A DNA stretch of 64,000 nucleotides. Origin: a virus. Taxonomy: Duplodnaviria; Heunggongvirae; Uroviricota; Caudoviricetes. The notes below the pieces were generated by a model. The model made no database searches. It worked only from the letters and a program-made list of their open reading frames with translations, and had not been told where the DNA came from. Location: the IMG/VR virus record IMGVR_UViG_3300008114_000011. One strand, written 5' to 3'. Both the position numbers and the translations under genes were made by a program. Shown in pieces: positions 1,534 to 62,276 of the stretch; positions within the stretch are counted from its first letter, which is position 1, and each line of letters begins with the position of its first letter.

Positions 1534-1986
1534 ATGGAAAAAACACCAATGCAACAACTTATCGATAAGATAGAACTTTATGACCAAAGAGGTGGTATTA
1601 ATATGCCTACACTTAAAGCAGTATTACAATCCTATCTTAGATTAGAAACTGAGTATTTAGAAAAACTAAAAGAAAATCAAACATCTAATATCAGTGAAGA
1701 TGCTTCTTTACTTATTGATAAGATAGATAAAGCAATTCAAAAGTTCGGCACTTACAGTTATGATGATAAAGGACCACATGAAGTAATGAACATGAATGAT
1801 ATCATAAAATTTCTAAAAAACAAACCTTTAAAAGAAATTGGTAAGATCCTATCCGAAGTATTAGACAACTACTCCAATTACTCAAGAGCATCTTATTTTG
1901 TTAATACTGTTATAGGAGAGTTTGATTATCTTCCTGAAGAAGAGTTTGAGCAATTACTTGATTGTGATAAAAGATTTGAATACTAA
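1534..1986 (+). CDS. hypothetical protein; N-terminal paralog of 11292..11528
   Basis: MEKTPMQQLIDKIELYDQRGGINMPTLKAVLQSYL vs MADKTPMEQLIDKIDLYDKNGGINMFTLKDVLQSYL. Confidence 0.65.
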   Translation: MEKTPMQQLIDKIELYDQRGGINMPTLKAVLQSYLRLETEYLEKLKENQTSNISEDASLLIDKIDKAIQKFGTYSYDDKGPHEVMNMNDIIKFLKNKPLKEIGKILSEVLDNYSNYSRASYFVNTVIGEFDYLPEEEFEQLLDCDKRFEY

Positions 1987-1990
1987 GAAT

Positions 1991-2386
1991 ATGAAAGTAC
2001 TGACAGCAGAATTAGTGGCATCAAACAGAAGAGAAAAAATATCTGGTGGTGTTTATATTGAATTCGAAACCACAGAGAATGTTAAGAAAGGCGATTACTT
2101 TAAAGTAAGAGTTGGTAATGATAATTATGACTTCAAAGCAACTGGTATTAAAGTAATTGGTGAGAAACTAATGATAACAGCTAAAGAGGTTGGTTATTGG
2201 GCATGGAAACTCGAAGATAAACCAGAGATACAAAATATAATTCTATGGGATGATTCTATGGATGTGTATGGTGTTTGGGATAAAATGCCAAATTGGAAAG
2301 AACTATTAGTGGCTTATAGAAAAACCATTTGGTTTAGTAAGAGCTTAGAAGATAAGAGAGATCAATTATTAAGGACGATATTATGA
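1991..2386 (+). CDS. hypothetical protein
   Basis: ATG at 1991 right after upstream stop preferred over the TTG at 1922 in the ORF track. Confidence 0.55.
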   Translation: MKVLTAELVASNRREKISGGVYIEFETTENVKKGDYFKVRVGNDNYDFKATGIKVIGEKLMITAKEVGYWAWKLEDKPEIQNIILWDDSMDVYGVWDKMPNWKELLVAYRKTIWFSKSLEDKRDQLLRTIL

Positions 2387-2727
2387 GTTTAGAAGATTGT
2401 TTTAACACACCATTTTTTGATTGGGTAATTGATAGTAATTATCCAAAATCAATTAAGTATTGGGATAAAATAACACATTCATTTAATAAAATGCCTCAAA
2501 GCACTCAGAAAGAATTAGAAGATGATATAGTTAAAGGAGCATTAGAAGAAATATATGATGTTCTTAAAAGAGAACCTCTTGCTGATTACTTCTGGTATAC
2601 CCATGATGGTAAACTAACTTGGACTACACCAGATTCTAAACTCGCACCTGGAGATTCATTAAGAATTAATAAAGAAAAGATTAAAGCCTTTTTTAGAGAA
2701 GAAAAATTAAATCAATTATTATCATGA
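2383..2727 (+). CDS. small protein with ELGI-type tail variant
   Basis: 114 aa; ATGA overlap; C-term FFREEKLNQLLS. Confidence 0.6.
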   Translation: MSLEDCFNTPFFDWVIDSNYPKSIKYWDKITHSFNKMPQSTQKELEDDIVKGALEEIYDVLKREPLADYFWYTHDGKLTWTTPDSKLAPGDSLRINKEKIKAFFREEKLNQLLS

Positions 2728-3110
2728 ATGTCTTAAAAACCAAGAATCTAAAGTTAGAAATGATAGAAAGAATTCTAAGCTATTTAGATAGAAACAATAA
2801 ATTAAAAATAAGTGGAGATGATTTAATGGGTTATAAACCTAATCTTTACTTATTCAGTAATCCGGTTATGCCATTCATTATAACTAATATCTACTTTAAA
2901 GGAGATGTTTTAAATATAGATATTAAATCTAATGATGATTTCTATAATTATCATAATAAACCCATCTTAGAAACCATAGAAATATCACATAAAGAAGAAT
3001 GTTATAGATTGAAGTCTGACTTAAAATACTTATTAAGTATTAAAGCTCTTAGGAGTTTAGAAGGAATATTATATACAAATCATATTAGATATGAAAGTAC
3101 TTTGTATTAA
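2724..3110 (+). CDS. hypothetical protein
   Basis: 128 aa; ATGA overlap with upstream gene. Confidence 0.55.
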   Translation: MNVLKTKNLKLEMIERILSYLDRNNKLKISGDDLMGYKPNLYLFSNPVMPFIITNIYFKGDVLNIDIKSNDDFYNYHNKPILETIEISHKEECYRLKSDLKYLLSIKALRSLEGILYTNHIRYESTLY

Positions 3111-3306
3111 TAATGATGATGTTAGTTCTATAACAGTTGGTAAGTGGTATAGAATTGCCGACCCCAAAGTATTTACTGAACAATTTAAGAATGGTAAATA
3201 TATAATATGTGATGATAAACATCGTTGGATTACTATAAGTCAAGATTTTTTTAAAACCATACAACAAATTAGAGAAGAAAAACTAAATGAATTAGGAATA
3301 TGTTAA
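3091..3306 (+). CDS. ELGI-tail family small protein (MKVICI subfamily)
   Basis: 71 aa; MKVLCINNDD...IREEKLNELGIC. Confidence 0.7.
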   Translation: MKVLCINNDDVSSITVGKWYRIADPKVFTEQFKNGKYIICDDKHRWITISQDFFKTIQQIREEKLNELGIC

Positions 3307-3749
3307 TAGTTATTATATGTTTGTCTATAGCACTGGTAATCTCTGCTATAACCATATCAAACCTCCTTGATAAAAACACTACACTCAGAACAGAATTAGA
3401 TTCTGCTAAAAAGGTAGTTGTAAAAGAAAAAGAGATATTTGATATAATGCCTGGTGATACTGGGATAATAAAGGACTATGGGATTGTAAACACCAACCCG
3501 AAAAGAGATCCTGTTAAAATAGAATATAAAGTAACTTATGAGGTAACCATCTTAGAAGTATCAAAAGATAGTGTTAAGGTTACTGCTACTGATTTCTCTT
3601 CATTTGATCTTTATCCAAGAGATCCTAATAACAGACCTAGTATAATTAACTTTATGAAAGAGAAGTGGATAGATAAGAGAATAGTAGAGATAGTTGTTGA
3701 TCAGAAAAAGATCAGAGATAGAAAATTATCAGAATTAGGAATAGAATAA
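3300..3749 (+). CDS. membrane-anchored ELGI-tail protein
   Basis: Hydrophobic N-term LIVIICLSIALVISAITI; C-term IRDRKLSELGIE. Confidence 0.65.
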   Translation: MLIVIICLSIALVISAITISNLLDKNTTLRTELDSAKKVVVKEKEIFDIMPGDTGIIKDYGIVNTNPKRDPVKIEYKVTYEVTILEVSKDSVKVTATDFSSFDLYPRDPNNRPSIINFMKEKWIDKRIVEIVVDQKKIRDRKLSELGIE

Positions 3750-3759
3750 ATATAAAATA

Positions 3760-3978
3760 ATGGGAAGTGGACTAGATAAAATGTATGATGATTACGACGA
3801 CTATCAATACATTTGTAAAAATTTAGGTGAGAAATCAACTCGTGGTTACACCGAGTTCCGTTCACATGAAACTCAGGTTTTAAGAAAACACGGGTTTAAA
3901 AGTAAATATGATTATTTTGATTATTTACACAAACAAGAAGAACGAGATAAAAAGATAGAGAATATACTTAAAAGATGA
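3760..3978 (+). CDS. small protein, degenerate tail
   Basis: 72 aa; C-term EERDKKIENILKR. Confidence 0.5.
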   Translation: MGSGLDKMYDDYDDYQYICKNLGEKSTRGYTEFRSHETQVLRKHGFKSKYDYFDYLHKQEERDKKIENILKR

Positions 3979-4142
3979 AAATATTTAATAACCTATTATA
4001 CTTAATCGTCATATCTTTTTGGTTTTTTTGTATAATTTTTGTATCATTTATATATTTAATGACACCTAAAAAGTATAAAGATTCTCTTAGAAGAAAATTA
4101 AAGATTTTTATAAATGATTAAAAGAATTTTAATATATAACTA

Positions 4143-4403
4143 ATGAAGTATATTAAAAATTTTAAGATGCTAAAAGAGCAATCTCATAAAGAGTTGCTTT
4201 CATTAAGTGAATTAAGAAAAAAATATCCAGAAGCAGTATTGACAATGGATACTAAACCTGGAGGTTATTTCGTTAGAGTGGATATAAAGACACAAGGTGG
4301 TGAACTGAAGTATATTGGTTCTCTTAGAGGAACTGTCTCAAAAGAGAAAGCTTTAGAGTTTCTTAATTCAACAATTGATGATAATTACGATAAGTATTAC
4401 TAA
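4143..4403 (+). CDS. MKYLK-head family small protein
   Basis: 86 aa; N-term MKYIKNFKMLKE. Confidence 0.55.
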   Translation: MKYIKNFKMLKEQSHKELLSLSELRKKYPEAVLTMDTKPGGYFVRVDIKTQGGELKYIGSLRGTVSKEKALEFLNSTIDDNYDKYY

Positions 4404-4419
4404 AAAATAAATAATGATT

Positions 4420-4692
4420 ATGAAATATTTACACAGATATAACGAAAGTAATGAAAATTTAGAAGGAGTTGCTCTTAAATTATATCCACCAGATCTATAT
4501 GAAGGAGATTATGGTAGCACCGAAGATTATAATAAAGATGTTAGAAATGCTTTCAAAGCTGGTGCTAAATGGCAATCAGAAAAAATGTACACCGAAGAAG
4601 ATATGAAACAATTTGGTTTATACTTAGGTGACAACCTTAAAAATTTAAAAGGTAAAACTATTGACGAGATTTTTGAAGAATTTATAAAGTAA
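4420..4692 (+). CDS. MKYLK-head family small protein
   Basis: N-term MKYLHRYNESNENLEG from ATG 4420 (alternative ATG 4414). Confidence 0.55.
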   Translation: MKYLHRYNESNENLEGVALKLYPPDLYEGDYGSTEDYNKDVRNAFKAGAKWQSEKMYTEEDMKQFGLYLGDNLKNLKGKTIDEIFEEFIK

Positions 4693-4697
4693 ATCAT

Positions 4698-4922
4698 ATG
4701 AAAGCTATTTGTATAAACGAATACGTCGGTGATACTTATATGGAACTAACTTTAGGTAAGATCTATAATGTCGTTAAAAAAGCTAAAGAAATAAAATTCC
4801 CGGATGATAAAATGAGATTCTTTATTATTAACGATGCTGGATATGGATCATACTATACGAGAAGAGTTATAATTCCATTAGATGAATGGAGAGAGAAACA
4901 ATTAAATGAATTAGGAATATGA
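4698..4922 (+). CDS. ELGI-tail family small protein (MKVICI subfamily)
   Basis: MKAICINEYV...DEWREKQLNELGI. Confidence 0.7.
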   Translation: MKAICINEYVGDTYMELTLGKIYNVVKKAKEIKFPDDKMRFFIINDAGYGSYYTRRVIIPLDEWREKQLNELGI

Positions 4923-5140
4923 AAGCAATCTGCATAAGAAAATCCCACCCTGGATACTGCAAATGGGACCTCACCCCAGGAAAGGCCTACGACGTGCTGG
5001 AACAGGGGAAAGACAACAACACCGAAGAGCCGATCTACCTAATACAGGACGACGAGGGAAACACATACTGGTACAGCAAGATCACGGTGATGCCGATAGA
5101 TGAATGGAGAGAGAAAAGGCTAAAAGAGATAGGAATATGA
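4919..5140 (+). CDS. ELGI-tail family small protein, GC-rich allele
   Basis: MKAICIRKSH...DEWREKRLKEIGI; hand count of first 120 nt gives about 51% G+C vs about 30% in neighbours. Confidence 0.7.
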   Translation: MKAICIRKSHPGYCKWDLTPGKAYDVLEQGKDNNTEEPIYLIQDDEGNTYWYSKITVMPIDEWREKRLKEIGI

Positions 5141-5189
5141 AAAAGATATTCATCTATAAAGTGAGACATATTGATTCAAAAAAGGAAGA

Positions 5190-5432
5190 ATGAAAGTTAT
5201 TTGTATAAACAACCATATGGATCAGATTCCACTTACTATGGGAAAAGTCTATGATATCAAACAAAGATTTTATAGATATGATTTTTCAAATATGAAATCT
5301 TTGTTTGATATAGAAGGAAAAGAACATTTTTCTATAAAGAACAACAAAGGTAAGGAATCTTGGTATACTAGAGAAGAAGTAGTTCCACTAGAAGAGTGGA
5401 GAGAAATTAAACTTAATGATTTATTAAAGTAG
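5190..5432 (+). CDS. ELGI-tail family small protein (MKVICI subfamily)
   Basis: MKVICINNHMD...EEWREIKLNDLLK. Confidence 0.7.
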   Translation: MKVICINNHMDQIPLTMGKVYDIKQRFYRYDFSNMKSLFDIEGKEHFSIKNNKGKESWYTREEVVPLEEWREIKLNDLLK

Positions 5433-5434
5433 TT

Positions 5435-5626
5435 ATGGAAATAAAATTTATTGAAAGTCACTCCTTCTTAGGGGAAGAAATGACTATGATAGTTAATGGT
5501 AATCATCACCGTTTAGAAATGAATAGGATGACATATGCTCAACATGCTGTAAAGATATTGAAAGATATTTATGATATTGATTTCAAACTAGAAGATGTTA
5601 AGTTTGAATGGGATGGGTATTTATAA
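5435..5626 (+). CDS. hypothetical small protein
   Basis: 63 aa ORF starting 3 nt after upstream stop. Confidence 0.45.
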   Translation: MEIKFIESHSFLGEEMTMIVNGNHHRLEMNRMTYAQHAVKILKDIYDIDFKLEDVKFEWDGYL

Positions 5627-5642
5627 AAAATTTGTTAATCAC

Positions 5643-5663
5643 TAAAAAGAATTAGGAATATGA
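5643..5663 (+). repeat. non-coding copy of the ELGI junction
   Basis: TAA AAA GAA TTA GGA ATA TGA: tail codons K-E-L-G-I directly after a stop; its ATATGA supplies the ATG of 5660..5887. Confidence 0.6.
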
Positions 5664-5887
5664 GAACATATGAAGAGTTAGTACCAGAGTTTGCTAGTAA
5701 AGGTAGAGAAGAGAAACAGAAATGGATTGATGAACTACCCATAGAAGAAATTAAAGTTCTTATAAATGGATTGAAGGGTGTTGCTTACACTGGTATATGG
5801 GATTCTTGGATTGAGTATATGGAAATGATTATACTTATAAAGATTGAATTGGAAAGAGAAAGGAAACTAAATGAACTTGGTATATGA
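5660..5887 (+). CDS. ELGI-tail family small protein
   Basis: 75 aa; C-term ELERERKLNELGI. Confidence 0.65.
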   Translation: MRTYEELVPEFASKGREEKQKWIDELPIEEIKVLINGLKGVAYTGIWDSWIEYMEMIILIKIELERERKLNELGI

Positions 5888-6231
5888 TGTTAGAAGACTT
5901 TTTAAAATTTGTAAAAGATATTGGATTCACTCTCACTATTATAAGAGATGAGTTTATCTACCTTTCTTATGGAAGATACACGATAACCATATACAATCCG
6001 GAAGAACATAGTGGATTCGAAAAAAGATATAGTCTGGGGTTTAAAAAAAATGAACACAACGTTACATATATCACAAGTGGTTCCGAAACAACTTTGAGTA
6101 GGACTACCATTTGGCTTGGCGAAAAAGTCACGTCTAACAAGATAAACTTCAAATTAGATGACTTTGAAGTACTTGAAAATGAATTCAAAGATATTATTAG
6201 AGAAAGGAAACTAAATGAACTTGGTATATGA
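5884..6231 (+). CDS. ELGI-tail family small protein
   Basis: 115 aa; ATGA overlap; C-term IIRERKLNELGI. Confidence 0.65.
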   Translation: MMLEDFLKFVKDIGFTLTIIRDEFIYLSYGRYTITIYNPEEHSGFEKRYSLGFKKNEHNVTYITSGSETTLSRTTIWLGEKVTSNKINFKLDDFEVLENEFKDIIRERKLNELGI

Positions 6232-6470
6232 ATGAGTTTAGAATAGGAGATATCGTAGTATGTATAGAAGGTGGAACAAATATACCATTCTCAGAAGGGA
6301 GATATCTAACGGAAGGTAAACAATATGAGATACAATCACTTAAATATTTAAATGGTAGAACCTATATATTCATAATTAACGATAGAAGGGCCAGGGAGAT
6401 ATATGATGTGAAAAGGTTCCGAAATTTTCAGAGAGAAAGAGATAATAAACTAAATGAACTTGGTATATGA
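6228..6470 (+). CDS. ELGI-tail family small protein
   Basis: 80 aa; ATGA overlap; C-term QRERDNKLNELGI. Confidence 0.65.
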   Translation: MNEFRIGDIVVCIEGGTNIPFSEGRYLTEGKQYEIQSLKYLNGRTYIFIINDRRAREIYDVKRFRNFQRERDNKLNELGI

Positions 6471-6700
6471 AAGTAGGAGACTTAATAAAACCCATCAACG
6501 GATTTAAATTTGGTAAAGGTAAAATGGAAATAATACAGATAATACCAGATACTAATATATCATCCGGACGAATACTCGTGAAGTACCATAATAGATCTAC
6601 ATTAAATAGAGAACCTTTAATGTCCTGGGAAGCCGCAGATGAATTTGTAGTAGATGTGGAGAGAATGAGAGATGAGAAATTAAACGAATTAGGAATATGA
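6467..6700 (+). CDS. ELGI-tail family small protein
   Basis: 77 aa; MKVGDLIKP...ERMRDEKLNELGI. Confidence 0.65.
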   Translation: MKVGDLIKPINGFKFGKGKMEIIQIIPDTNISSGRILVKYHNRSTLNREPLMSWEAADEFVVDVERMRDEKLNELGI

Positions 6701-6948
6701 ACGTAGGAGATTGGGTTAAGATAAGAAACATGGTAATGAAACCACACATTAAAATGAGAATAATAGAAATGAGGAAATACGTCGATCCGAACACATCCAC
6801 CAACTTCGTTATCGATCAGGTTCGCGTGAGGTACTATGATAAATGGTGGGTCAACGGAAAGGATATGTCTGGCTGGGAAAATGCATACGAATACGAATTG
6901 GATGTGGAGACAATGAGAGAAGAGAAACTTAAAGAACTGGGTATATGA
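6697..6948 (+). CDS. ELGI-tail family small protein
   Basis: 83 aa; MNVGDWVKIRN...ETMREEKLKELGI. Confidence 0.65.
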   Translation: MNVGDWVKIRNMVMKPHIKMRIIEMRKYVDPNTSTNFVIDQVRVRYYDKWWVNGKDMSGWENAYEYELDVETMREEKLKELGI

Positions 6949-7235
6949 AAGATTTAAGAATAAACCAATCAACATTCCCACTTAAAAATGGTGGCACTGG
7001 TGTAATAGCAATATTCATGTATGCCGGTGATGAAGATCCAAAACCTATATTAGAAGATGCTATAAGAAAATATACCGAAGGAACTGATAACTACGATACC
7101 TTTATTGATGCTCAAATGAATTGTCCATGGGTAAGAGTAATCATAAGTGGTATAAGTGAAATGGAACAAATGAATTTTAATGACTTTATAGTTCAATGGA
7201 GAAGAGATCAAAAACTAAATGAACTTGGAATATGA
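6945..7235 (+). CDS. ELGI-tail family small protein
   Basis: 96 aa; C-term QWRRDQKLNELGI. Confidence 0.65.
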   Translation: MKDLRINQSTFPLKNGGTGVIAIFMYAGDEDPKPILEDAIRKYTEGTDNYDTFIDAQMNCPWVRVIISGISEMEQMNFNDFIVQWRRDQKLNELGI

Positions 7236-7591
7236 TAAAAGTTAGGGCTATATTAAAAAGAACCGGTGAAGAATTTAACATAGATATAATAAGAACTTCT
7301 AAGGCAATGCCTGGTTCCATTACAATAAACGTTAGAGATTTAGAAAATAAACTAAATATTGTAAGTGTAAGATATGAAGAAGAAGAAAGACCAAAAGTTT
7401 GGAATGCCGACGGAACCCCTAAATATATTAGAATAGAAACTTTCCATGAGTTTAATAAATATTGGGATGTTATTTGGGTTGATGTTGATAGTTATGATAG
7501 ATTAGGATCTAATAAAGAAAGATATGAGATGATATATGGGAGCTTTAAAAGAATCATAAGAGATCAAAAGTTAAATGAGCTTGGTGTATGA
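7232..7591 (+). CDS. ELGI-tail family small protein
   Basis: 119 aa; C-term IIRDQKLNELGV. Confidence 0.65.
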   Translation: MIKVRAILKRTGEEFNIDIIRTSKAMPGSITINVRDLENKLNIVSVRYEEEERPKVWNADGTPKYIRIETFHEFNKYWDVIWVDVDSYDRLGSNKERYEMIYGSFKRIIRDQKLNELGV

Positions 7592-7782
7592 ACGATTTAC
7601 CGAATGATTTCGAAGAACTTATGAAAATTCTCTCAAAAAAGAGAAGTTCCGAACGTGATAAGAATAGGATAAAAGAAATCGATGATTTGACGAAATCATT
7701 TAGAGAGATGAGGTCAAAGAACAATTCTTTAAAAAGAAAGGGGTTTATTGAGAAGATTTTCCTATATTTGTATAAACATTAA
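7588..7782 (+). CDS. hypothetical small basic protein
   Basis: 64 aa; ATGA overlap with upstream gene. Confidence 0.5.
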   Translation: MNDLPNDFEELMKILSKKRSSERDKNRIKEIDDLTKSFREMRSKNNSLKRKGFIEKIFLYLYKH

Positions 7783-7787
7783 AGGAT

Positions 7788-8084
7788 ATGAGTAATTCTA
7801 AGAAGAAATCTTTAGAAAAGATAAGATTAAAAAATAGATACTTATCTGATCTTCATAAAAAACAGAATGAAGATTTTATGAAAAGTATAGGTAAAAATAT
7901 AGGTGAGTTTGTAACTTGTAAAAAAAGTCTTAAAGCACCTGGATTACTTGGTGGTTTCACAAAAGGTATATCATATAAAATACTTGGCTTTTGTGGTGAA
8001 CATGTTTGTTTATTAGATGATGAGAATAAAGAATATGATTCCATGGATTTATCCTTAAATTATTATAAAGAGTATTTTTATTAA
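7788..8084 (+). CDS. hypothetical protein
   Basis: 98 aa ORF in the co-directional chain. Confidence 0.5.
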   Translation: MSNSKKKSLEKIRLKNRYLSDLHKKQNEDFMKSIGKNIGEFVTCKKSLKAPGLLGGFTKGISYKILGFCGEHVCLLDDENKEYDSMDLSLNYYKEYFY

Positions 8085-8096
8085 ACAAAGACTAAT

Positions 8097-8318
8097 ATGA
8101 TAACAGAATACTCAACAACCGAACCAATAGTTACTAAAAGAGATATTATTAGATTAACCGTAAATATCATTCCGGTTGACTTTTATGTAGATGAAATAAT
8201 AGATGGAATTCCACAAATAAGTATTCTATTACCTTATCTCAATAATGTTGAATATACAGAGTATAGATTAGGAGCTACTCAACCTTTAAGAACAGGACAA
8301 GAATATGAAAAACTATAA
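8097..8318 (+). CDS. hypothetical protein
   Basis: 73 aa ORF in the co-directional chain. Confidence 0.45.
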   Translation: MITEYSTTEPIVTKRDIIRLTVNIIPVDFYVDEIIDGIPQISILLPYLNNVEYTEYRLGATQPLRTGQEYEKL

Positions 8319-8344
8319 CACATAATTTACTTTTAATATGGTTT

Positions 8345-8569
8345 ATGAAAGAAGGTGATATTGTTTTTTGTATTGATTCATCTGATCATGGTAAGAAACA
8401 GAAATTAACTTATGGTAAAGGATATACAATTAAAAGAATTGATAATTATAAATTAAATTCAAGTATATCCATTAAAAATGATAGTGGTGTAATTGGTATT
8501 TATAATTTTAATAGATTTATAACTCTCAAAGAATGGAGAGATAAGAAACTAAAAGAACTTGGGTTATGA
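8345..8569 (+). CDS. ELGI-tail family small protein
   Basis: 74 aa; C-term KEWRDKKLKELGL. Confidence 0.65.
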   Translation: MKEGDIVFCIDSSDHGKKQKLTYGKGYTIKRIDNYKLNSSISIKNDSGVIGIYNFNRFITLKEWRDKKLKELGL

Positions 8570-8835
8570 AAATGGTTTGTATAACAAATAAAATAAAAGG
8601 AAAAAACTTATCCAACCAATTAGTTGTTGGTAAAGAGTATGATTTCAAAGTGCAAGACTATGGTAGACTAACAAGTAATAGATATTGCTCTGTTTATTAC
8701 TATTGTACAAATGTTAGAGATAAATCAAATGCTTGGATAAGATTTACCGGTTCTGGTGGAGTTGATTGTATTTGGAGATGGTTTTCAACTAAACAGAATA
8801 TTAGAGATCAAAAACTAAAAGAGATTGGGATATGA
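8566..8835 (+). CDS. ELGI-tail family small protein (MKVICI subfamily)
   Basis: MKMVCITNK...NIRDQKLKEIGI. Confidence 0.65.
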   Translation: MKMVCITNKIKGKNLSNQLVVGKEYDFKVQDYGRLTSNRYCSVYYYCTNVRDKSNAWIRFTGSGGVDCIWRWFSTKQNIRDQKLKEIGI

Positions 8836-9032
8836 ATGTAGATGAAGATTTACTAAGATATTTTATTATACATTCACAAGGAATTAAACACGACGGTCCT
8901 TTATTTGATATCAGATTACTTGGTAATTCAATTATGTTTAGACTGAATCCTAATAGTGGTGCTTATGGTGTTGATTATAACTACTATAAGAGTTTATTAA
9001 GAGATAAGAAACTAAAAAATCTTGGGATATGA
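8832..9032 (+). CDS. ELGI-tail family small protein
   Basis: 66 aa; C-term LLRDKKLKNLGI; contains the 70-nt segment repeated at 15464. Confidence 0.65.
   Translation: MNVDEDLLRYFIIHSQGIKHDGPLFDIRLLGNSIMFRLNPNSGAYGVDYNYYKSLLRDKKLKNLGI
8888..8957 (+). repeat. 70-nt near-identical repeat (copy 1; partner 15464..15533)
   Basis: acacgacggtcctttatttgata...cctaatagt vs acacgagggtcctttatttgata...cctaatagt; about 3 mismatches by eye. Confidence 0.8.
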
Positions 9033-9247
9033 AAGAGATAAAGATTGGTACCAGATACCTTTGGATTGAAGATGGATATATCATAAGAGGAATTATAAAG
9101 GATATAAAAGAGAAAAACATAATCATACACTGGTATGGTAAGACAAACTATTCATACAAAATAGATTATTTTATGAATGAAACCAGAATACAGATGGATA
9201 AAGAGTATTATAGAGATCAGAAACTAAAAGATCTTCTGGGTATATAA
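9029..9247 (+). CDS. ELGI-tail family small protein
   Basis: 72 aa; C-term YYRDQKLKDLLGI. Confidence 0.6.
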   Translation: MKEIKIGTRYLWIEDGYIIRGIIKDIKEKNIIIHWYGKTNYSYKIDYFMNETRIQMDKEYYRDQKLKDLLGI

Positions 9248-9262
9248 AAATAAAAACGAATT

Positions 9263-23107: not shown

Positions 23108-23386
23108 ATGAAAACTACCGAAGAATATAAAATGGATACTTTCCGTATGTGGGAAGGAGACTGCCACCCAGCTATATACAAGAAAAATAAAAAAGGTGAA
23201 TGGGATTACCTATTCCTCGTCAGTAGCAAAGAAGAGGGACAGGCATACCTGGAAGACCACTCCACCATAAAGAGACGATACATTCAGGACCGCGTACTAA
23301 TCTACACCCTTTTCGTGATACCAGCGTCAGCTCTGTTGTTATGGTCAATAATAGTAGGTATATTGGCAGTAACCGGGAATATGTAA
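23108..23386 (+). CDS. small C-terminally membrane-anchored protein, GC-rich allele
   Basis: C-term LIYTLFVIPASALLLWSIIVGILAV; visibly GC-rich relative to flanks. Confidence 0.55.
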   Translation: MKTTEEYKMDTFRMWEGDCHPAIYKKNKKGEWDYLFLVSSKEEGQAYLEDHSTIKRRYIQDRVLIYTLFVIPASALLLWSIIVGILAVTGNM

Positions 23387-23715: not shown

Positions 23716-23731
23716 AAGAATTAGGAATATG
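23712..23731 (+). repeat. out-of-frame or non-coding copy of the ELGI junction
   Basis: ctaaaagaattaggaatATG encodes L-K-E-L-G-I in a frame closed upstream; supplies the ATG of 23729. Confidence 0.55.
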
Positions 23732-23932
23732 GACCAACAAATGAATATTATATGTATAGCTGAAGGTACTTACAAAATAACTAAAGGCAAGACCTACCAA
23801 GTAAACGCACATTCAACTCACCAATATTGGATCATAGATGATGAAGGTCATATGCAATTGATAGGTAAAGACTTTTTCAGAACACAACAAGAAATAAGAG
23901 AAGAGAAGTTAAATGAACTTGGAATAATCTAA
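23729..23932 (+). CDS. ELGI-tail family small protein
   Basis: 67 aa; NIICIAEG...QEIREEKLNELGII. Confidence 0.65.
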   Translation: MDQQMNIICIAEGTYKITKGKTYQVNAHSTHQYWIIDDEGHMQLIGKDFFRTQQEIREEKLNELGII

Positions 23933-24281: not shown

Positions 24282-24420
24282 GTTAGTGTGCGTTATTTAT
24301 TAGTAGAATGGCTTGAGGGCAACCCTATTATCGAATGTTTAGAGTATTGGAGTAATCTACCTAAATACGAAGGTTTTAAAATAGAACACACTATTTGTCG
24401 TATTACTAATGCACACTAAC
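24282..24420. repeat. long hairpin, 10-bp perfect outer arms plus inner arms
   Basis: GTTAGTGTGC...ATTAGTA // TACTAAT GCACACTAAC. Confidence 0.75.
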
Positions 24421-24509
24421 GTATCGGGGCTTTGCGTAGTAGTCCTTAGTAGAAACTTAAAATTAACCACGACACTTGATAGGGCTATTACACAAAGCCC
24501 TTGTTATGT
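24417..24509 (+). repeat. attC-like junction element (TAAC ... GTTATGT)
   Basis: TAACgtatcg-GGGCTTTGCGTAGTAGTCC ... GGGCTATTACACAAAGCCC-tt-GTTATGT; 19-nt arms with 3 mismatches. Confidence 0.55.
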
Positions 24510-24527
24510 GCCGTTAAATTTCACAAA

Positions 24528-24731
24528 ATGAGATACGAAGAAAAAATTATCGAACACACAGAAGAAGAAACAGACTTCTTACCACTCAAAGAAGCAATAG
24601 TGAATATCGAATTTTCTCAAGGTGACTTGATTGAAATGAGAGATATTTTAAGACAATTTAAGCCTAATTTATGGGCAAAAGGATTGTTGTCAGATATAGA
24701 AGCCACACTCGAAAAGGTGTCGGTGTATTAA
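24528..24731 (+). CDS. hypothetical small acidic protein (cassette ORF)
   Basis: ATG 24528; flanked on both sides by TAAC/GTTA hairpin elements. Confidence 0.5.
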   Translation: MRYEEKIIEHTEEETDFLPLKEAIVNIEFSQGDLIEMRDILRQFKPNLWAKGLLSDIEATLEKVSVY

Positions 24732-24813
24732 TGGCCCGTTTTGCGGTTTTGTGTTAGGCTACGAAGCCTTGGCATTGAGCGGTCGAGCAGCTTGCACAAA
24801 ACCGCTGTTATAC
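24729..24813 (+). repeat. attC-like junction element (TAAT ... GTTATAC)
   Basis: Stop TAA is part of TAATGG; arms GCGGTTTTGTG / CACAAAACCGC (11 bp perfect); then t-GTTATAC. Confidence 0.55.
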
Positions 24814-24871
24814 GCTGGCACGGGTAATTTAGTAGGAACTTAATTTGAAACACAAATAAAAATCAAAAGCA

Positions 24872-29217: not shown

Positions 29218-29275
29218 CGGTCACAGATATATTTAGGTTTTCTTTTTAATATATAAACTAAAATAATTTACAAAG

Positions 29276-29644
29276 ATGAAAGGTAAAAATAACATACAAA
29301 GTTTCGAAGAGTTTAAAGAAAACTTGAATATATCTGATGTTAGTGAGAGTAAAACTATTGGAGATATAATAGATGATAACACTAAAGATTCTAATGGATT
29401 TTTTTGGGGTGTATTTTCTGATACTATGAATTTTTTCATTGTTGATAAGGGGTTTAATGTTATATTTGAAACACCTGCGTTTTTTAATGGAAAATGGACA
29501 AATGATGTAAAAGAAGCAATGAAAAAATATGGAATAGACGACAACAAATCAAGAATGAGAACTGATAATAACATAGAAAAATTAAAAAAATCCATTAAAC
29601 TAGAATATGATTTATGGAAAATGTATAGTGATAGAACTAAATAG
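29276..29644 (+). CDS. small protein paralogous at N-terminus to 28969 (cassette ORF)
   Basis: Shared FEEFKENLNISDVSES; shared upstream string cagatatatttaggttttctttttaatatata. Confidence 0.5.
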   Translation: MKGKNNIQSFEEFKENLNISDVSESKTIGDIIDDNTKDSNGFFWGVFSDTMNFFIVDKGFNVIFETPAFFNGKWTNDVKEAMKKYGIDDNKSRMRTDNNIEKLKKSIKLEYDLWKMYSDRTK

Positions 29645-29969: not shown

Positions 29970-30770
29970 ATGAAAAAGACAAATTATTACGAAATTTGTA
30001 ATCAAAAATTGAAGTATTTAAACTATTCAGATAGGACTATCAAGTCCTATCTTTATTATATTAATCAATTTTTAGAAAATACTAAAATACCACCAACCAG
30101 ATTAACAGCAACAGATTTCCAACAATATCTCAATAATTACAATTTTACCTCCACCTCACAACAAAATCAAGTCATAAACTCAATAAGATTCCTATACAAA
30201 GAATCACTTAATAAAAAATATGATAAGGTTGATTTTAAAAGACCTAGATCTGAAAAGAAACTACCAAAAGTAATTGATGGCGATTATATCAAATCTAAAC
30301 TTTCTAAAATAGAAAACCTTAAGCATAAAACTATACTTACTTTAACCTATTCAGTTGGTTTAAGAGTTTCCGAAATAATAAATCTTAAAATAGAAGATAT
30401 TGACTCCAAAAGAATGATTATTCATATTAAAAATGCTAAAGGTAAAAAAGATAGAATTGTACCACTTTCAGAAAACGTACAAAATCTAATAAAAATATAT
30501 TCAGAAAAATATACACCAAAAGAATATCTTTTTAATGGTCAATCCACAAACAAATATTCAATACAATCCTGTCAAAATATCTATAAAAAATATATTGATG
30601 AAAATTCATCTATACATACCCTCAGACACTCAGCCTTTACCAACCTCTTAGAAAATGGAACAGATCTAAGAATAATACAGAAAATAGCAGGTCACTCATC
30701 CACCAAAACAACAGAGATATATACACACGTTTCTAATCAACTTTTAAATAAAGTTAATCTACCAATTTAA
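29970..30770 (+). CDS. tyrosine recombinase, IntI/XerC/XerD-like (short, 266 aa)
   Basis: N-terminal SAM-like pattern LKYLNYSDRTIKSYLYYINQF; GLRVSEIINLK; AKGKKDRIVPLS; HTLRHSAFTNLLENGTDLRIIQKIAGHSSTKTTEIYTHV (R..HxxR..Y catalytic pattern). Confidence 0.85.
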   Translation: MKKTNYYEICNQKLKYLNYSDRTIKSYLYYINQFLENTKIPPTRLTATDFQQYLNNYNFTSTSQQNQVINSIRFLYKESLNKKYDKVDFKRPRSEKKLPKVIDGDYIKSKLSKIENLKHKTILTLTYSVGLRVSEIINLKIEDIDSKRMIIHIKNAKGKKDRIVPLSENVQNLIKIYSEKYTPKEYLFNGQSTNKYSIQSCQNIYKKYIDENSSIHTLRHSAFTNLLENGTDLRIIQKIAGHSSTKTTEIYTHVSNQLLNKVNLPI

Positions 30771-30799
30771 CTTTTCTTTGAAAAGAATTATTAAATGAT

Positions 30800-30807
30800 T
30801 ATATTTG
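30800..30807 (+). promoter_or_regulatory. -7 box TATATTTG
   Basis: TAnnTTTG 21 nt upstream of ATG 30828. Confidence 0.4.
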
Positions 30808-30827
30808 TATATAATCACACACATAAT

Positions 30828-31256
30828 ATGATAAAGTTTGTTAAGAAGTCGAGTTCGGGGTCTACAAAAGAGGTGGATTTAATATTATCTGATGTTAGTA
30901 ATTGTAAATCATTAGCATCTTCTATCTTATTAAGAAAATATTTAATGGAGATGGATGTGGATTATATAGAGAAGATGGATTTGATTAATAAACGTATTGA
31001 GTTTAGTAGAAGTTATTTAGAGAGTGTTTTATCTCGTGATGGTGATATTAAGTGTACTTATTGTGGTAAGGGAGATTTGGTTATTGAGTATGATGGGATG
31101 CGTGTCAAAGAAAGTATAAAGGCTACGATTGATCATATCGTTCCTGTATCAAGAGGAGGAGGTAGGTTTGATGTTAGTAATATAACTCCATGTTGTGGTG
31201 AGTGTAATGGTAAGAAGGGTAATAAGTCATTAGATGATTTTCTAAAGTCGATTTAA
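30828..31256 (+). CDS. HNH endonuclease
   Basis: CTYCGKG...ATIDHIVPVSRGGGRFDVSNITPCCGECNGKKGNK. Confidence 0.8.
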   Translation: MIKFVKKSSSGSTKEVDLILSDVSNCKSLASSILLRKYLMEMDVDYIEKMDLINKRIEFSRSYLESVLSRDGDIKCTYCGKGDLVIEYDGMRVKESIKATIDHIVPVSRGGGRFDVSNITPCCGECNGKKGNKSLDDFLKSI

Positions 31257-59136: not shown

Positions 59137-61158
59137 TTAAACCCATTTATCATTTTTTCTTTTAAGAAGTTTATCTCCTTCTAATTTATAAAACTTATAT
59201 TTTTTATCAATAGAAGTTATAACATAATATTTATCTGGTCCTAATTCCTTATATCTTTTCATATTACCAGTTACCTTAACACCATCCACTTCACCACCCA
59301 TTTGTTTGGCATAAGCCCATTTAATATAGTGTGGATCAACGTGTCTCGATCTTAATTTATCTTGTTCAATTGATGTTTCTAATGTAGATAATAAGTGAAT
59401 AAAAACTATTTCATATCCATTCTCTCTTGCTAAATCAAATATATCCTTAATGTGTTCATAACCAGTATCAGTATATTCTTTACCAGCACCGGTTGTATCA
59501 TAGATAAAGTTTTGACCAGTTTTCATAAAACCTTTCATCTTCATTAAGTTTAATTCAGACGCATTTTTTGTTCTACCACCTTCTTCTTTTTCTTTTCCTT
59601 TATAATAAACATTTGGATCTTTTGTGTAAAGAAGTGAAATATCATCAGTTGAGAAGTCTTTAATGTTTGTATTTTTTGTATGTAAATAATTATTCACAAA
59701 GTGTGAATTATGTAGTATTGTTGGTAAGTTACCACCTATGAAGTTATGATGTTTATCTAAGACTATATCATAAACATAATCATTATGTTCTATTGTTGAT
59801 ATATTAGTTATTTTATCAAAAAATAAGTTATTGTGATGATTAATATATGTTTCTGGTATATAAACATTATTCTCATTTAAAAAATTACATATTTTATTAA
59901 AACGTTTTTTCGTTATTACTCTTCTATATTTATAACTTCTAGTAAATCTATATCCAGTTTCATCTTCTGGTATAAATTCGGTAATAAAAAATAAAAAAAC
60001 AAATTTAAATAATAAGGATTTTTTATCATATATAGTCAGGGTAACAAGTGATGATTTTAATTTATTTGGAGAAATATTAAATAAATATATTAGATGTAGT
60101 AGAAAAAAAATTAAACCAATTGAAAAAACTAATACAAATATTGGTGGATTTATACCAAATGATGACATGGTGGAATTAATTTATAATAATAAATTAAACA
60201 TTAAAAGTGCATAAGATAAATCAGTAGCCATTTCATATGACGATGTGTAATATTCAACTCTATTTTCAAATACAGAACCATCACAAGATAAATAACTACC
60301 TAAGAAATGTTTTAATGATTCACTGTTTGATATTATATCATCCGGAATTCTAACTTTATGTGATTTGTTGCCAAAAATATAATCACCACATATTTCAGAA
60401 ATATTTGAAATAAAATCATATTTATCTTTTTTAAATCTTCGATTTCCTAATTTAATATCATCTGAATATTGAACACTATGTCTTATTTTTTTAGATTTTA
60501 CTGTTAATATTTTATTTTCTTTTTCGACACATTTTCTAAAATCATCTATTATATCAATATCTATATTTGTTAGTGTTAGAAATTTACTATTTTTATTTTT
60601 TATAAAATTACCATCACTTAACGAATAACCAATAATCCTTGATAATTCATTACTTATTTTTGATTTATTATTAAAAGTGTTATTTATTATTCTAGGTCTG
60701 GCTAACTTATCATCTATTGTTATTTCTGATGATTTTTTCCAAATAATATCACCGTTTTTTTCTAAAACTAATAATGGGTGTATAGGTGTAACTTTTATAT
60801 CAACACCCGTTTGTGTTTTTATATTTATTAACTTTTCTGAATAGCCTCTATATAAACTCGAAATCTCATTTTCCACAAACTCACCACTATCATTTAATGA
60901 TTTAACATATAAGTTTTTAACAGGAATATTTATTTCACCAATTTTTGATTCGGTGTTATAGTTATCTATCAATTTACCAATTTTAGTCATTTTATTATTC
61001 ACTAAAATGGGTGTATTATATTCTAAGCACTTTCCAATACCGGGAGCACCGATTAGGAAAACAGCTAATCCTTTTTCTTTATCTAATATTTCTGGAATTG
61101 GTTCATTCTTTGACCATTCTTCTTTTATGTAATTGAAAAATTCTTTTATATATCTCAT
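59137..61158 (-). pseudogene. intein-containing P-loop kinase, reading frame broken by one in-frame TAA (60181..60183)
   Basis: ORFs 60181..61158 and 59137..60168 are in the same frame. N-extein ends GAPGIGK. C-extein starts SHFVNNYL...IYDTTGAGKE (zeta/AAA_33-like kinase pattern). Confidence 0.6.
59707..61029 (-). mobile_element. class 1 intein with LAGLIDADG homing-endonuclease domain
   Basis: Block A CLEYNTPILV directly after the P-loop Lys. Block B VTPIHPLLV. LAGLIDADG motifs IIGYSLSDGNF and FLGSYLSCDGSV. Blocks F/G YVYDIVLDKHHNFIGGNLPTILHN|S. Confidence 0.8.
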
Positions 61159-62276
61159 ACTAATCTATTTATTTTAGTTTCAATTCCTTTTCTTTTCAAA
61201 AAGATGTGACCATCTCCACAAACATCACAGATTCCATTGTAACTTGAGAAACATTCACCATCACATTCATAACATTGATCATCACCACCATCCGTTTCAT
61301 GTAACCAATTACAATTCTTAGATGGTAAGTTTGATAACTTTTTACCTTTTAAGAAACAAAGTGTATCAATGAATGGATATTTATTGAAGTTTGATTTTTC
61401 TAATTTGACAGATATTTCGCCAAAAAATTCCTTATTATCATATAAAAAACAAACATTTGTTTCCGTATGACTATTCATTTTCTGTTTATATAAAAATTTA
61501 TTCTCATTAGCAAAATTTTTAAACTTTATAACATCAGAATCATTATTTACATAAACTCTATCCATAAAATATTTAGCATCACAAGGTGACTTTTTTAGTT
61601 TCCAAACTAAAGCTCGACCACAAATTTGATCAGTTTCTTTATTGTGTAGAATTAAAAGACCAACTTTATTATCATTCTCCACATATAGTTTTAATTTACC
61701 CCTAGCATCACCCATACAAGATCCTCCTAAAGTCCCATTAGTGTTTAAGTAATTAGATGTGTTATAATATTTGATAATATCATCACCTTTAACAATTTTA
61801 AACTGCCATTTATCATTTATTTCTAATGATTTATATGCGTTCACAAAGTCTTCAACATCTTTATCGGTTAAATTAAAATTAATAGATTTTGAACTTTGTA
61901 TCATAGACACAATAGATCTCAAAACTCTACCAATTTTCATTTCAGATCTCCCTAATGTGTATGGCAAATCTGGATCTTCATCATTATCCCAATCTTTAGG
62001 AACTTTATCATTCATAGTGAAACTAACCATATCAACTCGATTGGTAGTATCAAAAAAGTTTTGAGTTATTGAATCATCTTTTAATTGATGAAATGGATCT
62101 GCTTTTCTATTTAAGAATTCATCAATGATTTTAGAAATATCACCCACTCTACCAGATTGTCTAGATAATTCGGAAATCTTTCTATGAAATTCGGATGTCG
62201 AATATAAATACCCCTCTAATAAGATGACTAAATCATTATTTAATTTTTCTAAAATAAATTGGTTATACTTTCTCAT
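61155..62276 (-). CDS. paralog of 51948..53663 with a single short Cys cluster
   Basis: Shared blocks GDDIIKYY, LGGSCMGDA, VGLLILH, ICGRALVWKL, FMDRVYVNN, YPFIDTLCF, ETDGGDDQCYECDGEC. Confidence 0.7.
   Translation of the reverse strand: MRKYNQFILEKLNNDLVILLEGYLYSTSEFHRKISELSRQSGRVGDISKIIDEFLNRKADPFHQLKDDSITQNFFDTTNRVDMVSFTMNDKVPKDWDNDEDPDLPYTLGRSEMKIGRVLRSIVSMIQSSKSINFNLTDKDVEDFVNAYKSLEINDKWQFKIVKGDDIIKYYNTSNYLNTNGTLGGSCMGDARGKLKLYVENDNKVGLLILHNKETDQICGRALVWKLKKSPCDAKYFMDRVYVNNDSDVIKFKNFANENKFLYKQKMNSHTETNVCFLYDNKEFFGEISVKLEKSNFNKYPFIDTLCFLKGKKLSNLPSKNCNWLHETDGGDDQCYECDGECFSSYNGICDVCGDGHIFLKRKGIETKINRLV

Follow-up and report, generated by a model that had tools for sequence, protein, structure and literature searches.

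We analysed a 64,000-nucleotide (nt) stretch of a Caudoviricetes virus (IMG/VR record IMGVR_UViG_3300008114_000011; this whole stretch is called the window, and positions are its own unless a contig is named), in which a few G+C-rich genes lie within an AT-rich chain of small genes. The window is 28.5% G+C, with a mean G+C content at third codon positions (GC3) of 0.217 (standard deviation (SD) 0.080) across 142 open reading frames (ORFs). Its plus strand is largely a chain of small genes, ~27 of which end in R[DE]xKLxELGI, and at most junctions the terminal ATA (Ile) codon and the TGA stop overlap the following start in the sequence ATGA. There are 12 copies of the 15-nt junction pattern GARHTNGGNATATGA in the window, where 0.04 would be expected, and ~17–20 of the chain proteins are paralogues with the consensus MKxxCI...LTxGKxY...R[DE]xKLxELGI (ELGI family). 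An earlier note had described gene 4919..5140 (island 1) and three further loci as G+C-rich alleles within this chain, bounded by the conserved junctions, and had proposed that they are recent replacements by homologous cassettes from a phage of different base composition, with recombination in shared junction or head sequences.

Gene 4919..5140 is 0.473 G+C overall and 0.508 over its first 120 nt (4919..5038), in agreement with a previous hand count of about 51%, and its flanks (0.290 at 4698..4918 and 0.267 at 5141..5432) are close to the 30% stated for its neighbours. Only 0.24% of all 222-nt windows are equally G+C-rich. The GC profile and codon-usage check proposed earlier gave a GC3 of 0.62, ~5 SD above the ORF mean, with the G+C excess sitting at synonymous sites. 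Head (MKAICI) and tail (WREKRLKEIGI) of the protein are those of the family. The same pattern is present at 15110..15470, where gene 15110..15388 has a GC3 of 0.62 and block 15125..15471 (island 2) is 0.484 G+C, and, as described, partially around 6780..6850, where a patch (6771..6838) is 0.485 G+C and the 5' part of the same gene 0.297. At 23108..23386 (island 3) G+C is raised more mildly (0.416, GC3 0.46, flanks 0.22–0.23), but the gene is outside the ELGI family and has the junction motif at neither end. Containment between conserved junctions, at which the compositional deviation should stop, therefore describes island 1 but not island 2, which runs 86 nt beyond the gene junction and stops mid-gene, nor island 3.

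The G+C-rich sister lineage

The island 1 protein had only two relatives in a search of 5.8 billion proteins. A back-translated scan of metagenome contigs found contig L006 (13.9 kb of a 36-kb contig, 47–50% G+C), and the follow-up found contig L025 (5.6 kb, 51% G+C), which comes from a different sample. Both carry a similar gene chain, made up of small ...KLKELGI genes that overlap by ATGA, at a GC3 of 0.57–0.82 (0.60–0.80 in most L006 genes). We take them to represent a lineage that is sister to the window phage but G+C-rich, because many other genes are common to both at 52–84% protein identity. Contigs of the G+C-rich and of the window type turn up in sister assemblies of one project (JACCDW to JACCEA), and this lineage of ~50% G+C, with the same gene chain and many shared genes, co-circulates with the window phage in the same kinds of sample.

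For islands 1 and 2, near-identical copies (91–97% nt identity) exist in these composition-matched genomes (G+C 0.47–0.51). Island 1 is 96.4% identical to L006 10001..10224 and 97.3% identical to L025 3101..3324, and identity falls to 0.21–0.41 just outside. The island 2 block (15123..15471) is 92.2% identical to L006 5727..6086 and 91.4% to L025 458..817 (flanks 0.34–0.42), with a final portion, part of donor gene B, that is 100% identical to L006. Patch 6771..6838 is 94% identical to L006 and 93% to L025, against 0.55–0.57 on its 5' side and 0.76 on its 3' side. Overall, the identity blocks show 0.92–0.98 within and 0.21–0.54 outside. The island 1 protein shares 95%, 65% and 49% identity with tandem paralogues of the G+C-rich lineage versus 26–37% with its window paralogues, and the right-hand neighbours of its gene are alike in L006 and L025; its nearest paralogues and shared neighbours being there, the gene is native to the G+C-rich lineage and a guest in the window.

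Window-specific differences from L006 and L025 are clustered and show no GC-to-AT bias, which rules out decay towards AT after transfer and argues that the transfers are recent relative to compositional drift. As these differences (3–8%) are clustered, the true donor would be a slightly different member of the lineage. Island 1, island 2 and patch 6771..6838 are very probably recent captures from a related phage lineage of ~50% G+C, with donor codon usage kept. On these comparisons, the inference of a recent gain from a phage of different composition is correct for islands 1 and 2, both as to source, given near-identical copies in a matching background, and as to recency, given no compositional decay.

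Junction and microhomology joints

The features discussed here are collected in Table 1. The island 1 block begins exactly at the ATG (4919) and ends in ...ATAGGAATATGAAA at 5142, so that one gene between two junctions is shared, with the right limit of identity at the ...GGAATATGAAA junction; the flank downstream of the gene is the same in contigs L002 and L004. Mapped in this way, the block spans start codon to junction and fits recombination in shared junction or head sequences. The short AT-rich ORF that follows is probably the leftover head of a resident gene.

Table 1 Features of the window at and around the G+C-rich loci.
Feature	Position	Strand	Description
Left junction of island 1	4908..4922	+	GAATTAGGAATATGA; tail of resident gene 4698..4922, overlapping the island 1 ATG
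Island 1	4919..5140	+	Complete 73-amino-acid (aa) gene, SH3-like MKxxCI...ELGI family, foreign codon usage
Right junction of island 1	5126..5140	+	GAGATAGGAATATGA; donor-lineage identity stops 2 nt further, at 5142
AT-rich 18-codon ORF	5137..5193	+	MKKIFIYKVRHIDSKKEE; between island 1 and gene 5190..5432
Orphan junction motif	5649..5663	+	GAATTAGGAATATGA; ends no ORF; direct repeat of 4908..4922
Native AT-rich cassette, exported	6228..6470	+	98.3% identical to L006 6778..7006; both block ends in ELGI junctions
Mosaic gene B'	6697..6948	+	Identity to donor gene B: 0.57 in the AT-rich 5' part, 0.94 in G+C-rich 6771..6838, 0.76 in 6839..6948
Chimeric gene	15110..15388	+	Five resident codons (MLKDI) in frame with donor gene A (MTAKLIAKEDYF...KLKEIGL), same SH3-like superfamily
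Island 2	15125..15471	+	347 nt of G+C-rich donor DNA: gene A and the first 87 nt of gene B (MKLKIGDWV...)
AT-rich filler	15472..15530	+	59 nt, completes the 406-nt insertion; copies part of a gene like 8832..9032
Resident gene remainder	15531..15872	+	SRINDLVETIGF...; start cut off by the insertion, out of frame with the ATG at 15110
Island 3	23108..23386	+	92-aa gene, hydrophobic C-terminus, not ELGI family, without junction motifs
HNH endonuclease gene	30795..31256	+	AT-rich orthologue (GC3 0.25) of the L006 HNH gene (GC3 0.65); 84% aa and 79% nt identity, showing the background divergence of the two lineages

A second junction-bounded block has the opposite composition. The copy of the native AT-rich cassette in L006 (6778..7006) is an AT-rich island with a GC3 of 0.23 against a background of ~0.65, and its flanks are 0.44–0.54 identical to those of the window. 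The left crossover lies within the ...GAACTTGGnATATGA tail of the upstream gene and the right crossover inside the cassette's own tail, past AATAAACTAAA. As the G+C-rich lineage holds window-type AT-rich cassettes, transfer runs both ways. L006 also contains an AT-rich multi-gene island at 2396..3835 (G+C 0.27–0.37, GC3 0.20–0.38) within its ~50% G+C sequence; its match to the window is confined to 86 nt (29261..29346, 87%), and it therefore comes from another AT-rich relative.

Length variants at the same kind of repeat segregate among window-type contigs. In L021, position 4922 is joined straight to 5664 via the 15-nt direct repeat GAATTAGGAATATGA, and the four-gene block 4923..5663 is gone; in the sub-lineage contig L014, 6474..6915 is absent and the ends are joined at the 12-nt repeat GGTATATGAAAG. 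Island 1, the AT-rich cassette and these two variants are consistent with the recombination in shared junction or head sequences that the earlier note had proposed, and island 2, with its different joints, is not. Whole cassettes would here be exchanged through short conserved junction or head sequences of which ~11–15 nt are identical. Synonymous positions of the tail differ between junctions while the peptide is kept in genomes of 28% and 50% G+C, so the motif is probably conserved for the protein, with recombination there a by-product. A second orphan junction motif (aaactaaaaGAATTAGGAATAtgg, 23718..23732, plus strand) is non-coding and stands just before gene 23729..23932; it looks like a relic of a lost upstream ELGI gene. 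In L018, L019 and L005, a 130-nt deletion (window 5396..5525), with a microhomology of 2–3 nt at the joint, has run gene 5190..5432 into the middle of gene 5435..5626, and illegitimate deletions therefore also segregate in the population.

Island 2 has a different structure, for which an empty site is available. In contigs L027–L029, with flanks 95–98% identical to the window, this site reads ...GGAATATGTTAAAAGATATT/AGTAGAATTAACG... (GATATT/AGTAGA, with the slash at the insertion point), exactly 15125..15530 is absent, and the resident gene is intact (P0161, MLKDISRINDLV..., 147 aa; it reads MLKDISRINDLVETIGF...). The 406-nt composite insertion falls after codon 5 of this unrelated gene, which has thereby lost its start and, 406 not being divisible by 3, its reading frame as well; gene A ends up in frame with the resident MLKDI start. 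The filler and its immediate surroundings (15461..15533) are 94.5% identical to 8885..8957 of the window, and a distant homologue of gene 8832..9032 directly follows gene B in L006. Each of the three joints is at a microhomology of a few bases (e.g. ACACGA(G/C)GG) and none lies in the junction motif; as unique sequences they are found also in L022–L024. The description of this locus as a homologous allele replacement is contradicted by the empty site, which shows an insertion at microhomologies that is not junction-bounded. Judged from its joints, island 2 is an illegitimate, template-switch-like or deletion-bearing insertion, a composite of two templates that microhomology-mediated joining or template switching would have produced by a second route, separate from exchange at junctions.

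Donor gene B recurs in mosaic gene B', in which the differences from it over 6839..6948 are mostly GC-to-AT changes at third positions. The gene B fragment of island 2 (15385..15471) ends within ~4 nt of the point at which gene B' turns donor-like (6771), and the sub-lineage without island 2 (L027) is also without 6474..6915 (L014, same sample) but has island 1. A broader proposal, which we consider doubtful, is that the ELGI/ATGA tail is more than a protein motif and acts as a portable coding linker, through which a large repertoire of small SH3-like genes can be exchanged across lineages whatever their composition (and presumably host), and that a single break in gene B gave two ends that were captured at 15385..15471 and 6771, which would account for this coincidence.

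Island 3 is a separate case. Its homologues are 77–80% identical at the nt level and occur in L008, a 187.7-kb jumbo-phage contig of 36% G+C for which it is the sole DNA-level match to the window, and in L026 (47% G+C); its closest G+C-rich relative is 77% identical, and no near-identical copy is known from a composition-matched genome. The gene is present in all readable contexts and no empty site was found, although L032 begins too near to tell. Island 3 is probably an older or indirect acquisition.

Alternative explanations

Several points weigh against recent capture through junctions as an account of these loci. The G+C-rich lineage was read over 13.9 kb, 5.6 kb and 2.4 kb only, the actual donor differs from L006 and L025 by 3–8%, and island 3 has no close G+C-rich counterpart. 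No contig shows the island 1 site just before acquisition, and since L021 lacks the four-gene block and not the single gene, replacement, insertion and later rearrangement are inseparable there. The earlier idea of homologous-cassette replacement is accordingly retained at island 1 as a junction-bounded exchange, be it replacement or addition, and given up at islands 2 and 3. The identical junction stretch is short (~11–15 nt), and a preference of breakpoints for junctions is unproven as a mechanism because selection against broken genes also favours breakpoints at gene ends. Co-infection, which would have been the occasion of the exchange, is an assumption, and the joining itself would have been the work of phage enzymes for recombination or replication.

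The carrier might have been a third phage that was mosaic beforehand, or else a defective prophage, with both G+C-rich and AT-rich cassettes, an indirect route that we think possible though rather unlikely, and which is a refinement of, not a contradiction to, capture from the G+C-rich lineage. The AT-rich 59-nt piece after the G+C-rich part of the island 2 insert follows the L006 gene order (A, B, 8832-like) and fits a mosaic donor with an internal deletion; L006 is itself mosaic (AT-rich islands 2396..3835 and 6780..7022), L008 (locally 28–45% G+C) has only island 3 in common with the window, and the 3–8% by which the islands differ from L006 and L025 lies in clustered patches. However, no intermediate contig was found in the searchable collections. 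Transfer by a homing endonuclease, in which an L006-type HNH enzyme cut the AT-rich phage during co-infection and repair co-converted the flanking gene without the endonuclease gene, appears improbable. The L006 HNH gene (9461..9985) does end 15 nt upstream of the island 1 gene, the HNH gene has a different position in each lineage, as expected of a mobile gene, and further homing-endonuclease genes (GIY-YIG, LAGLIDADG/intein and others) are present in the window; but L025, the best island 1 match, has no HNH gene beside it, neither an HNH gene nor a remnant adjoins island 1 in the window, L006 identity begins exactly at the ATG, and no endonuclease is linked to island 2. The 477-bp contig L004, which carries an HNH tail, the island 1 gene and then the window-type AT-rich downstream flank, carries L006-like variants up to a point within the gene and window-like variants from there on; whether a genuine recombinant or a chimera across the shared 96% repeat, it is not relied on here.

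That L004 could be a chimera, and that both lineages come from sister assemblies of one project, might suggest that an assembler stitched G+C-rich pieces into an AT-rich contig through shared junctions. We consider such an artefact very unlikely: the island-bearing arrangement recurs at 99–100% identity in separate data sets (ERZ27247979, ERZ4249286, SRR7182497, SRR12685669, JGI 3300008264, GCA_031544975 and others) and record formats (k141_, NODE_, Logan, JGI and NCBI contig names), the unique island 2 joints recur in L022–L024, and junction identities of 12–15 nt should be too short to bridge contigs that were assembled with longer k-mers. G+C-rich islands often mark structured RNAs in very AT-rich genomes, and resident genes could in principle be held G+C-rich by local selection for RNA structure or special codon usage. 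Folding against shuffled controls gave z-scores of +0.46 for 4919..5140 and -0.70 for 15125..15471 and Rfam had no match at the islands (only two tRNAs elsewhere in the window), by which the RNA-structure reading is ruled out; the concentration of the G+C excess at third codon positions, near-identical copies in genomes with that composition as background and the empty site of island 2 leave local selection in general with almost no probability.

The phage lineage and comparison with known systems

The window looks like a piece of a large, uncultured, lytic-looking AT-rich phage genome, and the same or near-same contigs recur in many metagenome assemblies (L013, which comes from a 66.6-kb contig, matches 1698..7922 at 100% identity). 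A type IX secretion sorting domain in one window protein hints at Bacteroidota as the probable host group. Among the encoded proteins are a nicotinate phosphoribosyltransferase, a phosphoribosyl pyrophosphate (PRPP) synthetase, an SPFH protein, an intein with a LAGLIDADG domain and further homing endonucleases (GIY-YIG, HNH and others). The lineage has no cultured relative, since a cultured-phage database gave no DNA match, near or distant, for the region or the island and no protein match for the neighbouring paralogue 4698..4922, and the best cultured-phage match of a conserved window enzyme was ≤34% identical. In IMG/VR, the sole match for the island 1 search was a spurious one of 34% in contig L003 (66% G+C), island 2 had no match and the exact junction 24-mer was not found; GTDB genomes gave only chance matches, in Rhodanobacter, and hence no clue to the host, and a literature search on the tail peptide returned nothing relevant.

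The island 1 protein is predicted to form a five-stranded SH3-like β-barrel, superposable on SH3 domains, with a C-terminal helix (predicted local distance difference test (pLDDT) score 87). A profile search of public data with this SH3-like ELGI family returned 3859 cluster representatives at E ≤ 0.001, and Pfam and PHROGs assigned no function to the island proteins. An SH3-like 'KVxCI...LTxGKxYEV' domain without the ELGI tail also occurs as 3–15 tandem repeats in single proteins of 289–1941 aa (P0010–P0014, P0019, P0022; other sources), and an evolutionary link between these proteins and the phage gene chain may exist. In the annotations of contigs identical to the window (L013, where 3226..3519 corresponds to window 4923..5216, and also L014, L015 and L020), the intact island 1 ORF is uncalled; annotation of AT-rich phage contigs may thus be missing genes of foreign composition and transfers of this kind.

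Other G+C-rich or unusual features of the window were also recorded. A 90-nt tRNA found by Rfam (12126..12215, plus strand; 40.3 bits) and missed by ARAGORN explains the G+C peak at 12037..12187 and may have a long variable arm or an insert. The G+C-rich intergenic stretch 24405..24510 (plus strand) forms a long near-perfect hairpin (minimum free energy (MFE) -35.3 kcal/mol, z -5.09, none of 200 shuffles as good) and has no Rfam match, and a second such stretch, 24728..24835, is weakly structured (z -1.7 to -1.9). On the minus strand, intein splicing and LAGLIDADG domains lie on three neighbouring ORFs (59137..62276), which look like an intein-containing gene split over separate reading frames. 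A tyrosine integrase-family gene (29970..30770; PHROG integrase, E 2e-40) lies directly upstream of the HNH gene (pair 29970..31256, plus strand) and is unusual for a large, lytic-looking phage.

Tailed phages evolve in a modular, mosaic fashion with conserved boundary 'linker' sequences, as set out in Botstein's modular theory and in comparisons of lambdoid phages. The islands resemble lambdoid-type mosaicism in their high-identity blocks with sharp edges at gene borders between diverged relatives and in the combination of short-homology exchange with illegitimate joins; unlike there, the partners are >20 percentage points apart in G+C and the phages are uncultured. Because each block is labelled compositionally by this gap, the direction of transfer can be read directly. 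Although mosaicism among phages is familiar, it is seldom possible to read which way a single event went, how recent it was and where exactly it was joined; here both routes, homologous at junctions and illegitimate at microhomologies, are visible together, with empty sites in the population. Lineages whose composition suggests different hosts must, moreover, meet in one cell or share an intermediary.

In T-even phages, free-standing homing endonucleases cause co-conversion of markers. A mobile HNH gene likewise adjoins the transferred gene in one donor-lineage contig, and the window is rich in homing-endonuclease genes, but neither window island adjoins one and L025 has no HNH gene there. An integron-like array, which would call for an integrase associated with the cassettes and for attC-type imperfect inverted repeats at their ends, does not fit: by eye the junctions look purine-rich on one strand and non-palindromic (no inverted-repeat scan was made), and the only integrase-family gene lies 15–25 kb from the islands. 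Relaxed homologous recombination by phage recombinases (De Paepe et al. 2014, PMC3945230) would explain exchange at imperfect junction homologies of 11–15 nt; unlike in those systems, no recombinase gene was identified in the 64-kb window, the tyrosine integrase-family gene being the sole recombinase-like match.

The closest process described so far is found in T4-type phages, in which modular shuffling is mediated by promoter early stem-loop elements (PeSLs), intergenic regulatory cassettes comprising an early promoter and a stem-loop terminator (Arbiol et al. 2010, PMC2839356; Comeau et al. 2014, PMC4122927). In both cases short repeats at gene boundaries allow small genes, mostly of unknown function and located in the plastic regions of large lytic phages, to be gained, lost or replaced between close relatives. 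The window junctions differ in having no intergenic space, the repeat being a coding tail (...KLxELGI) that overlaps the next start (ATGA), and over 3000..9500 neither promoter-like sites (34 against 40.1 expected) nor terminator-like sites (1 against 1.6 expected) are enriched; with these overlaps, cassettes of the PeSL type are ruled out. The islands are an ordinary case of mosaicism between phages, unusual in that the linker is a coding junction; a conserved tail of this kind, which codes for protein and overlaps the next start at its stop, can act as a recombination linker. If the coding-linker reading is true, the gene chain would amount to a cassette system whose role parallels that of PeSLs or integron attC sites.

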